Below are positions 7,097 through 11,236 of a DNA stretch of 20,000 bases, one piece after another (position 1 is the first letter of the stretch; the number at the start of each line of letters is the position of its first letter). Source of the stretch: Reclinomonas americana ATCC 50394. Its lineage: Eukaryota. The DNA lies in contig PS015045.1 of the NCBI GenBank assembly GCA_048213135.1, positions 99,100 through 119,099 of the forward strand, given 5' to 3'. A program made the position numbers and the translations under genes. The notes beneath the pieces were generated by a model that saw only the letters and a list, made by a program, of their open reading frames with translations, had not been told where the DNA came from and searched no databases.

Positions 7097-10000
7097 ATGC
7101 TGCTGTTGCGCGCGTTGAGTGGCAGGCTGATGCTCGGCATAGGTGGACTTGCGGTGAGATAATCGTCGCACGTTTGAGAGTTTTCAGCTGTTGATCCTCT
7201 CTCTCTCTCTCTTCTTCTGTGTGTGTGCGTCAGGCCGGCATTTGCCTTGTCCACCTCGCCGAGGGTGCGCTTGAGAACCTGCAAGGCCCACCCGCTTGTA
7301 AGCCTGCGCGAGTTCCACTGCAACCGTCACTCTCCGCTGTGCGAATAATGCACGCGGCGGCGATCTCCCGCGTGCCTCCGATACGGCTGACCACCAGCCA
7401 GGCCGACCTTGCCGAGGCGGTGCGTGAGTCCATTGATCAGCGCATCAACATCATTTGCGAGAGCGTGGTCACTGCGCTGTGTGAGATGAGAGACTACCGT
7501 GGTCGGCTCGCTGCTCTGGCATACGCTGTCCACGAGTACGAGAGCATGCCAGGAGGCACGGCGGCGACGCCAGAGGGACGCATCGCTGCCACACAAAAGA
7601 AACTGCGTGTGTTGGCCGACGAATGCACATCGGTGAGCGTCAAGAACCACCTGCGGAGTCTGGAGGTGGTGGATGCACAAGAGACTTATGTCATTGCAGT
7701 TGCGAGAACGCTGCATGCGTGCGCCACCATCGTGCTTTTTAACCATGTAGTGTTGATGTGTGCGGGTGCGCGCAGGTGGACCGTGAGCATCGCGAGGTCA
7801 ATCTGTGCATTGCAGGGACTCGGTTTCCGAAGATTACCGATCTCTGGGCCAATGTCAAGCTTGCGCTTGGATTGGCGTTCTTTGGTGCCGTCCCATGGCA
7901 GTTTCGGGCTGGCGAGGAGGCGCTAATGTATGCGCTCGACAAGGTGGCACCCGCATACCAAGCAAGTCACGGACCTGAAGCAGAGTTCAACGCGTACCAC
8001 GTCAGTGTGCATGGACACAGTCTCGGCTCGGCCATTGTGCGTTGTCGCGCCATTCCTTTTCAGGCTGTGCGTGCTCATTTTCTTGCACAGGGTGTCTGGT
8101 TGAAGCGCAGCGAGTTGGTCAAGAACGCCAAGCTACCAGTGACCGCGTTCCTGTTTGCTACCCTTCCAGTGCCGGCGAGATGGGTGGCCGTGGACGATGA
8201 CGCAGAGGAGGTCTGTAGCTGTCGTATGCTGCTGCGTTCATTTGTTGTTGTTGTTGTTGTTGTTGTTGTTGTTGTTGTTGTTGTTGTTGTTGTTGTTGTT
8301 GTTGTTGTTGTTGTTGTTGTTGTTGTTGTTGTTGTTGTTGTTGTTGTTGTTGTTGTTGTTGTTGTTGTTGTTGTTGTTGTTGTTGTTGTTGTTTGTTGNN
8401 NNNNNNNNNNNNNNNNNNGTTGTTGTTGTTGTTGTTGTTGTTGTTTTGTTGTTGAGTGGTGCTCACTCTGTGTCTTGGCTCCAGGCGGAAACTCTGCCGT
8501 GGGATGCTGTGGGCACGGCAGTCATCCACCACAGAGGTGCTGTTCATTCATACTCACACACCGATGATCTCATTCATCGAGTGGTGCAATGGGTCGGGTC
8601 GCATCGGCATACCGTCAAGTTGCCCGACACGTTTGAACATGACTCGCGTCGCCGACATTCCGTCGCACATTATTATGACTCGGATCTCCGAGGTGAGCGC
8701 GCGCATGCTTTATCCTGAAGCATTAGCCTTCTTGCAATATGCTTCTCATGTCATCGTATGCAATGTGCACTTCTGCGTTCTCTCAGTGCTTGGTGGGGAT
8801 GATGCAGCACTTATCAACGAAATGATTGGAATGCTGCGTGCAACGCTGCACCCACGTAAAGGTGAGAGGATGTGTCGCAGTATTCGAATCAAATAGTGAC
8901 AGTCCCTAATAGCTCGCTGCGTGTGCATGCATGCAGACCCTGAGCTTGTGCCGGTCTCAGTCAGCAGCGTGGTGGACCGTCTGTCTGACGCGTTTTCGAA
9001 AATCAACGCCCGGCGTGTGGATGTGCACCAGAGTGCGCGCTTGCACGCCACACTCAACGACTGCCTGCAAGGGCTGTGGAATGGTTCGTGTCTCTCACAT
9101 TAATACGCCTGCTATGTCAACCGTGCCAGTATGGCTGACCCAAACGATGTTTAATCGCAGAGATGCGAGACTGTGTGACTGGAGAGGCGGCACAGAGATC
9201 GCTGGATGTGCTGGAGTTCCTCGGGTCGCTGGTCGACTTGGCGGCAGTCGGTGGTATTTCGTAGCTCCTCTTTAGTCTGTATTCTATAAATGGCTGCGCG
9301 CTCACGTACGTGCTTGTGTGTCGTGCATGCAGGTGCGGGCATGGAGAATCCTGTGTTTCCTGCGATGACCACAGCAATTCAACAAGAGCTGAATGCAGCC
9401 GCTACTGATAGTGCTTATGTGATGTTCTGTGGGTATTGTCTTCTGTTTTCTTTGCTAAAGATCAAAACTCAACAGCAGGTGTTCTTCGACATGTGTTGGT
9501 TGGCTGTCTGGGAGTTCAACAGTTCTGCGGCGATTACCACCCAGTTTCGCGTCACAACAACAGTCTTGGGAGTATCGCCTCGAGGTCTGAAACTTTTTGT
9601 GCATGTGCAGAGAAGCACGGCAGCAGCTCAACGAGCGTTCGAGATTCTGCAACTGATCATCCAGTTTGCAGAGCACCCAGTCGGATGTGATGGTGAGTCG
9701 AAGCTCCTGTTCTCACAAATCTAGAGTCAATTCGTTGACGATGCGACGTACACTGTGGTCGCAGGAAAGTGCAAGAGCAGAGCGTTGGCGGCAAGGGAGA
9801 AGGTGGCAGTGGTACTACGTTCACTTGGCCAGTACGCCGAGGCCGAGGATACCATGCAGCAGGTGGTGTTCGACTGTGAGCGGCTTCTTGGAACCTTCCA
9901 TCCCCGCTGCATTGACAACCGTCAAAAACTGGCGTTGGCATATCAGTCTGGTGACAATTATGCTGCGGCCGAGGTGGTTGAGCGAGGTGTGGTGTCTGAT

Positions 10001-11236
10001 TGCGAGATGTTTCTCGGGGTCGACCATCCGTATACCATCGCCAGTCGCCAGATATTGGCGTCGATACTTTTGTCGGCGTGCAAGAACTCTCAAGCCGAGG
10101 ATATTCAGCGTCGTGTGGTGGCCGACTGCGAGCGGGTATTTGGAGCCAATCATCAACAGACTATTGGCAGTCGGCACAGTCTGGCGTCGATACTGCAAGC
10201 GCGGGGCAAGGATGATGAGGCCGAGAAGTTGGAGCGGCGCGTGGTGATTGACTCTGAGCGGCTTTTTGGGGCCGACCACTCACACACCATCACCAGTCGC
10301 CATAACTTGGCGACGACACTCTCTCAGCTTGGCAGGAATGCGGAGGCGCAGGTGATTGGGCAGCGGGTGGTGGCTGACTGCGAGCGGATCTTTGGAGTCG
10401 ACCATGCTGACACCATCGCCAGTCGCGACAACTTGGCATCGACACTCCAGTCGCTTGGCAGGCATGCCGAGGTCGAGGAGATTCAGCGGCGTGTGGTGGC
10501 CGACAATGAGCGGCTTCTTGGAGTCGACCATCAGCTCACCATCACCAGCCGTCATGCTTTGGCCACAACACTCTCATCGCTTGGCAGGCATATGCATGCC
10601 GAGGCCGAGGAGGTACAGCGGCGTGTGCTGGCCGATCGTGAGCGGATCTATGGAGTCGACCAGCCGGACACCATCACCAGCCGGCACACTCTGGTTGCAA
10701 CACTTCAGTCTGCCGGCAAACATTCCGACGCTGAGGAAATCCAACGGCGCCTGGTGACCGACAATGAGCGGATCTATGGAGTCGACCATCCGGACACCAT
10801 CGCCAGCCGGCATACTTTGGCCACAACACTCTCATCGCTTGGCAGGCATGCCGAGGCCGAGGACGTACAGCGGCGTGTGCTGGCCGATCGTGAGCGGATC
10901 TATGGAGTCGACCATCCGGACACCGTTGCCAGCCGACACACTCTGGTTGCAACACTTCAGTCTGCCGGCAAACATGCCGACACTGAGGAAATCCAACGGC
11001 GCTTGGTGGCCGACAATGAGCGGCTTCTTGGAGTCGACCATCAGCTCACCATCGCCAGCCGTCATGCTTTGGCCACAACACTCTCATCGCTTGGCAGGCA
11101 TGCCGAGGCCGCGGCGGAGGTTATCGATCGACGTGCGGGGGCCGATCGTGAGCAGGCTCACTCGAACCTGAACGACGTCGACTCAGTACTGGTCGTGGAA
11201 CATCACTCGCCTGGCTTGTTCTTCCTCAGCTTGTAG
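7097..11236 (+). CDS. Lipase_3-like hydrolase + helical linker + 11x 42-aa TPR array, copy B (multi-exon)
   Basis: Phase-consistent exons: 7097-7153 (tentative; alternative ATG 7348), 7234-7698, 7776-8036, 8091-8210, 8485-8692, 8787-8861, 8937-9083, 9161-9253, 9333-9692 (may hide two in-frame introns) and 9765-11236. Motifs: LCIAGT, VHGHSLGSAI, YSHTDDLIHRV, RHSVAHY. TPR consensus: G.DHPDTI.SRH.LA..L...G...EAE. Confidence 0.85.
8244..8452. repeat. (GTT)n microsatellite with N gap, inside intron 8211-8484 of copy B
   Basis: Direct repeats flanked by GT donor (8211) and CAG acceptor (8484). Confidence 0.95.
9770..11150 (+). repeat. Coding tandem array of ~11 x 126-bp TPR units
   Basis: Recurring ggagtcgacca(t) motif at ~126-bp spacing; the C-terminal units are nearly identical at DNA level. 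Confidence 0.92.

Follow-up and report, generated by a model that had tools for sequence, protein, structure and literature searches.

A predicted lipase-TPR fusion gene of the protist Reclinomonas americana with a probable STAND-type linker but no nucleotide-binding domain

Positions 7097 to 11236 (plus strand) of a 20,000-nucleotide stretch of DNA from Reclinomonas americana ATCC 50394 (contig PS015045.1, positions 99,100 to 119,099; hereafter the window) are predicted to encode a class-3-type lipase fused to a C-terminal array of tetratricopeptide repeats (TPRs). An initial annotation had proposed that the open reading frame (ORF) pieces scattered over this region are joined by GT-AG splicing into one gene. 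This fusion gene is confirmed as an exon structure at the DNA level: twelve phase-consistent GT-AG exons give a protein of 1045 residues without internal stops, and a second copy in the window, paralogue A, supports the model. The two halves are connected by a linker that probably derives from an NB-ARC-type member of the signal transduction ATPases with numerous domains (STAND), devoid of the nucleotide-binding domain (NBD). With a probability of roughly 40%, we consider the protein to be a sensor-gated effector, in which the repeat arm and a winged-helix remnant would keep the lipase shut and a ligand would free it without nucleotide exchange. The target gene and its paralogues have the following features (HD1, helical domain 1):

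7097-11236, plus strand: whole spliced target gene with N-terminal extension, class-3-type lipase, probable HD1/winged-helix remnant and TPR array
7097-7153, 7234-7698, 7776-8036 and 8091-8210, plus strand: exons 1-4
8485-8692, 8787-8861, 8937-9083 and 9161-9253, plus strand: exons 5-8
9333-9418, 9479-9550, 9611-9692 and 9765-11236, plus strand: exons 9-12
7097-7153, plus strand: putative small first exon, 19 residues, uncharged except for Arg; the least certain part of the model
7459-8692, plus strand: class-3-type lipase domain, about residues 95-370, exons 2-5 with phase-0 introns; start boundary approximate
7818, 8019, 8566 and 8656, plus strand: key lipase codons, Thr189 of the AGT motif, Ser256, Asp329 and His359
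8211-8484, plus strand: intron 4, which contains a (GTT)n microsatellite and, at 8399-8418, an assembly gap of 20 N
8693-8786, plus strand: intron of phase 1 between lipase and linker (residue 370), common to target and paralogue A
8787-9799, plus strand: linker, residues 371-567 (exons 6-11 and the start of exon 12), probably an eroded HD1, a winged helix and one further helix of an NB-ARC-type STAND protein, without NBD
9800-11065, plus strand: ten 42-residue TPRs of the kinesin-light-chain/NLR type, one with a two-residue insert
after 11065, plus strand: partial 11th TPR and tail, to the stop at 11236
1-3149, minus strand: paralogue A, with the same lipase, linker and first TPR helix, running past the window edge
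4860-5222, minus strand: paralogue B, N-terminal exon only, ending in a stop; a truncated copy within a duplication of about 1 kb

All 11 donors of the target are GT and all 11 acceptors CAG, and ten of the eleven introns measure 54-94 nt. Since chains of GT-AG sites can arise by chance, the real test of the gene model is paralogue A. This copy, read on the minus strand from 3149 to the window edge, consists of nine exons that encode 581 residues without a stop; of its TPR part, only the first helix lies within the window. Its lipase region is 38% identical to that of the target (107 of 281 aligned residues), and the N-terminal and core parts of the alignment score above 500 of 500 shuffles. 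Four introns have the same position and phase in both genes (target residues 174, 261, 370 and 444), and one more sits four residues away, at target residue 301; this last intron, the counterpart of intron 4, is 86 nt long and free of gaps. The similarity runs on across the spliced lipase/linker joint. Moreover, a single exon of paralogue A holds the end of the linker together with the first TPR helix, so that the linker-to-TPR join does not depend on the choice of splice sites. Differences between the copies at the three codon positions number 130, 108 and 174 in the lipase (278 codons) and, with a weaker third-position excess, 115, 96 and 132 in the linker (194 codons), and the codon chosen differs at 56 of 104 identical residues. 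From the third-position excess it follows that the protein has been under selection.

Details of the model leave some room. Retaining 9551-9610, an in-frame stretch, as coding sequence would give 11 exons and 1065 residues. Reading through the eleven introns meets a stop in six and shifts the frame in two; the remaining three, introns 3, 9 and 10, keep the frame, lack a stop and could be retained. Neither exon 1 nor the start codon is certain, and further methionines are present at residues 12, 58 and 104. The putative exon at 7097-7153 contains Arg and no acidic residue and resembles a weak organelle targeting peptide; paralogues A and B start differently. In both paralogues an acceptor-like AG is found a few bases 5' of the first ATG (3161 in A and about 5230 in B, minus strand), which suggests an extra small upstream exon, as in the target. 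The phase-1 intron at 8693-8786 is a candidate for an exon-shuffling joint.

The N-terminal half carries IAGT (7809), GHSLG (8013), HTDD (8557) and RHSVAHY (8653). The motifs strand-GT, D-W, GHSLG, strand-F..P, D and H follow one another in the order and register of class-3 lipases (PF01764). The GxSxG nucleophile elbow and the order Ser-Asp-His are present in both paralogues, the triad counterparts in A being Ser251, Asp324 and His364. All three residues and the Thr of AGT are preserved between copies that differ at 62% of positions. Ser and Asp are 73 residues apart (47-70 in reference lipases), Asp and His 30 in the target and 40 in A (references 16-69). Asp329 and His359 were assigned by motif, spacing and conservation in A, not by profile alignment. 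Two lipase profiles were built from PF01764-positive sequences, one from 31 bacterial loci and one from 149 sequences including eukaryotic ones; one locus was left out of each first-round profile (31 of 32 used for the lipases, 27 of 28 for an alpha/beta-hydrolase control). The 31-locus profile gave 13.5 bits for the target and 18.8 for A, with 6.1 as the best of 1000 shuffles, and the control profile of 27 other alpha/beta-hydrolases 4.0 and 11.9 bits. The 149-sequence profile yielded 13.0 and 18.6 bits (shuffle best 5.6) and a probability of 96.4% in hhalign, and in a reciprocal search over 240 proteins the Lipase_3 proteins ranked at the top.

The initial annotation had expected PF01764 together with TPR_10 and TPR_12. 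The two TPR families were matched; Lipase_3 was not detected on the separate exon pieces of target or A, the whole spliced domain not having been scanned, and the best Pfam match of these pieces was Abhydrolase_6 (expect value, E, 0.096) on an exon of A. A sequence search of solved structures with the lipase piece gave no match. Half of the lipase domain, modelled with an intron read through, folded with a predicted local distance difference test (pLDDT) score of 50 and the N-terminal exon of A with 63 and mostly helices; neither had a meaningful fold match, and no lipases were listed. Altogether, the N-terminal half is best called a very divergent class-3-type hydrolase with a retained triad, and it is somewhat probable that it is catalytically active.

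In the C-terminal half, Pfam TPR_10 matched 11 stretches (E 8.9e-90) and TPR_12 also matched (E 7.4e-59), with a repeat period of 42 residues. The repeats are 51-90% identical to each other at the DNA level, which points to recent internal duplication. Their relatives were analysed as the best 120 of 1422. Nearest among these are TPR proteins from actinobacteria, other bacteria and fungi (E to 1e-187), with TPR-CHAT and kinase-TPR proteins among them; in 102 of the 120 a P-loop precedes the TPRs, and none of the 120 matches a lipase profile. The kinesin-light-chain-like nature of the repeats and their NLR-like kinship (NLR, NOD-like receptor, where NOD is the nucleotide-binding oligomerization domain), as first annotated, are thus borne out, the closest relatives being mostly STAND-TPR proteins. 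A bacterial family of cyclic nucleotide (cNMP)-binding/Crp-helix-turn-helix - STAND - TPR proteins dominates, with 59 of 100 clustered STAND regions (P0017-P0119). Among solved structures, kinesin light chains (E 2e-19) come nearest, together with two Podospora TPR arrays. Kinesin light chain consists of an N-terminal heptad coiled coil followed by six TPRs; the target, in contrast, has a lipase-type N-terminal half and 10-11 repeats, and the match is confined to the type of repeat.

The linker had been described as a helical segment lacking a P-loop and a central nucleotide-binding domain. The second part of this description holds: the target protein contains no P-loop pattern, and an NBD profile scored both proteins at shuffle level (32 of 100 and 45 of 100 shuffles were as high). 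The linker itself is probably not neutral. In paralogue A it aligns collinearly with NB-ARC-TPR proteins, over their HD1 tail and winged helix. In each of six settings this linker outscored every one of 300 shuffles and of 200 real-ORF decoys; in a further comparison it outscored all 120 TPR decoys, all 300 block shuffles and 97-100 of 100 reversed STAND decoys. A STAND profile of the 59-member cNMP family found no match in the linker and a balanced STAND profile a weak one. Taken together, a STAND origin is partly shown, and we favour it. A degenerate STAND NTPase in this place had been named beforehand as a finding that would speak against the annotated architecture; the remnant goes part of the way, but the NTPase core is gone. 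The linker was also compared with degenerate copies of the 42-residue repeat, and this explanation was rejected.

How could such a protein work? In the sensor-gated reading, one cytosolic protein would derive from an NLR-like NB-ARC-TPR receptor. The class-3-type lipase would occupy the place of the NBD and of any former effector, joined at the phase-1 intron and followed by the eroded HD1/winged-helix segment and about eleven 42-residue TPRs. The TPR superhelix and the winged-helix remnant would fold back on the lipase and hold it closed. Once a protein that is foreign or altered self had bound in the groove of the TPRs, the lipase would be released directly, without ATP exchange, and the freed Ser-Asp-His enzyme would hydrolyse acyl-ester lipids, those of membranes or others, with defence or cell death as the output. 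Gating, substrate and defence role, like the expression of the gene, are what we infer here; the proposed mode of working follows an analogy with PLP-1 and fungal protease-repeat fusions (PMC12881547). A bolder version, which we regard as rather unlikely, would see here an ATP-independent 'NBD-replaced' NLR family, with an enzyme cassette at the NBD/HD1 boundary and a winged-helix/TPR clamp that restrains a membrane-active lipase directly. In NLRs this clamp normally holds the ADP-bound NBD.

Fungal lipase-NB-ARC-TPR NLRs are exemplified by Neurospora PLP-1 and Podospora het-z (patatin-NB-ARC-TPR) and by sesB-like/NB-ARC/TPR genes such as Pa_2_10340 (PMC12881547, PMC13449251, PMC4986451). The target shares with them an N-terminal lipase-type effector, a C-terminal kinesin-light-chain-type TPR array and a fast turnover of copies, and probably the same HD1/winged-helix segment. 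In contrast to PLP-1/het-z and the sesB-like genes, its lipase is of the class-3 type and neither patatin nor sesB, and whereas PLP-1 needs its nucleotide-binding motif, the target has neither P-loop nor NBD. Cell death by PLP-1 requires the lipase (patatin) activity, according to PMC12881547. That paper also describes fungal proteases that frequently carry TPR, WD40 or ankyrin repeats in direct fusion, and S8 or CHAT proteases with such repeats but without a nucleotide-binding oligomerization domain (NOD) that activate gasdermins (PMC12881547). Like those NOD-less sensors, the target is an enzyme with a repeat array and no nucleotide switch; unlike them, its effector is a lipase, and what is probably a winged-helix remnant separates this enzyme from the repeats. 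In its working the target may resemble an NLR-type effector-sensor, but it does not count as an NLR, since a test for the defining NTPase showed it to be absent.

Searches for relatives of the lipase part used exon-fragment queries and were of low sensitivity. A word-indexed search of longer proteins gave no relative among 524 candidates, and the sole match of a full HMMER scan with a three-fragment profile was a spurious low-complexity repeat protein. Metagenome and viral contigs contained no relative, apart from two 15-residue pattern matches in otherwise dissimilar sequences. In a sample, not a census, of 120 of 126 long Lipase_3 proteins (118 of the 120 with usable lipase segments), none matched the 42-residue repeat and one, the uncharacterised P0210 of the Rickettsiaceae, contained TPRs. 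P0210 has Lipase_3 at 444-585, ankyrins and 34-residue TPRs and no P-loop; like the target, it combines a Lipase_3-type domain with TPRs in one chain without an NTPase. It differs in its canonical lipase, its ankyrin middle and its type of TPR. It has no similarity to the 42-residue repeats or the STAND profile and is therefore an independent fusion. Three other long Lipase_3 proteins, P0194, P0206 and P0209, are lipase-GTPase fusions with septin/MMR_HSR1-type domains. Neither these searches nor the long Lipase_3 proteins turned up a housekeeping orthologue. In the open-access literature, supplementary domain tables apart, we came across no account of a class-3 lipase that carries 42-residue TPRs, nor of a receptor in which HD1 and winged helix remain while the NBD is missing.

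The window consists of eukaryotic DNA in which introns are short and of the GT-AG type; it also contains microsatellites and six gaps of N. Its genes are arranged in the order paralogue A (minus), a decayed WD40 gene, the truncated paralogue B, a WD40 remnant, a gap-cut WD40 gene, the target (plus), another WD40 gene and a RabGAP-TBC gene:

11715-13100, 5989-6786, 5588-5950 and 3609-4663, minus strand: four related WD40 genes or remnants, interleaved with the lipase-TPR copies
about 16480-18210, plus strand: exons of a gene with a RabGAP-TBC domain (PF00566, E 7.6e-9)

Copies are born and lost at this locus, as seen in the truncated paralogue B and the decayed WD40 copies. Paralogue B is 61% identical to A over 109 residues. 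It arose by a direct duplication of about 1 kb (2821-3810 versus 4918-5829, 70% identity) that takes in exon 1 of the lipase gene together with the 3' end of a WD40 gene. The WD40 copy at 3609-4663 contains a stop as well as a frame change, that at 5588-5950 is a fragment, and in that at 11715-13100 the tail lies in two frames across a G-rich run. The copies share a short helical C-terminal tail without a Pfam family (LARFALRAV / LDCARSALRAVRE ... CLVEIVLRCF). Head to head with the target lies the WD40 gene of 5989-6786, separated from it by only about 290 bases and a 20-N gap (6788-7097); the 5' end of this WD40 gene is lost in the gap, so that its spacing to the target is uncertain. The RabGAP-TBC gene, which resembles the TBC1D22/Gyp1 type, is probably a housekeeping gene and would mark where the variable cluster ends. 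In the window we recognised no partner of the gasdermin kind, and PADLOC reported nothing relevant.

Several observations weigh against the sensor-gated reading or its parts. The N gap in intron 4 separates the exons with the Ser from the exon with Asp and His, and the first exon has no counterpart in paralogue A. In hhalign, class 3 (95.5%) is separated slightly from a generic alpha/beta-hydrolase control (93.9%), and the profile alignments begin at the AGT strand, end with the strand that follows GHSLG and do not reach Asp and His. Both paralogues deviate from class-3 lipases in three motifs: RG[TS], found in 120 of 149 reference lipases, is AGT; HxG[FI], found in 141 of 149, is absent; and GHSxG[GA], found in 144 of 149, is GHSLGS. 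The hydrolase triad and IAGT are in place as annotated, but with these three motifs altered 'intact' was too strong a word. The repeats, finally, reach at best 77 of 100 identical residues (lag 84) and stay under the mark of more than 85% internal conservation over 100 residues that PMC4986451 gives for about a fifth of fungal TPR NLRs; their overall ratio of nonsynonymous to synonymous differences (pN/pS) is 0.5.

Other explanations were considered. Kinesin-light-chain TPRs bind cargo peptides, and the protein might be a constitutive lipase or acyl-hydrolase whose TPRs would direct it to a membrane or a partner protein, where it would remodel lipids or digest prey; autoinhibition and an immune role would both be missing, and the linker would be a spacer of whatever origin. 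The kinesin light chains as best solved matches, the pN/pS of 0.5 and the triad preserved in both paralogues fit such an enzyme. We nevertheless consider it unlikely, as the kinesin light chains match far more weakly (E 2e-19) than the bacterial and fungal STAND-type TPRs, A and target are only 38% identical with one further copy truncated, and a housekeeping orthologue did not turn up in the exon-fragment searches or among the long Lipase_3 proteins. Class-3 lipases also include the lipase-like plant proteins EDS1 and PAD4; an EP domain was not noticed in the target, no search aimed at it having been made. By their logic the target would be a pseudo-enzyme, a sensor or decoy that binds a lipid, small molecule or pathogen effector without hydrolysing it and signals in trans via full-length NLRs or the neighbouring WD40 proteins. 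The three altered motifs and the WD40 genes on both sides of the target would agree with this; the preservation of Ser, Asp, His and Thr despite 62% difference, at spacings near or inside the reference ranges, would not, and we do not expect this explanation to hold either.

Least of all do we believe in an artefact or silent relic, that is, separate genes or contigs joined over the assembly gap or an unexpressed, decaying NLR fragment. The gap in intron 4, several weak donors (GTTGCG, GTCACA and GTCTGT), the broken neighbouring copies and the failure of Lipase_3 on the pieces could be cited for it. Against this stand two stop-free models of 1045 and 581 residues, the gap-free counterpart of intron 4 in paralogue A, the single exon of A with linker end and first TPR helix, and the similarity to A that continues over the spliced lipase/linker joint.

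Lipase-NLRs and NOD-less protease-repeat sensors are already known. Should the sensor-gated reading fail, the gene would still represent an orphan, fast-evolving lipase-TPR family without a close relative in the collections searched. If it is true, the family would amount to a small experiment of nature on whether a sensor can be coupled to its effector without the nucleotide switch, and a lipase output would be added to the innate immunity of protists, a poorly charted field. If the target were indeed an NLR with its NBD replaced, this would mean that the autoinhibition scaffold of NLRs can be reused without a nucleotide, here in a protist immune locus.

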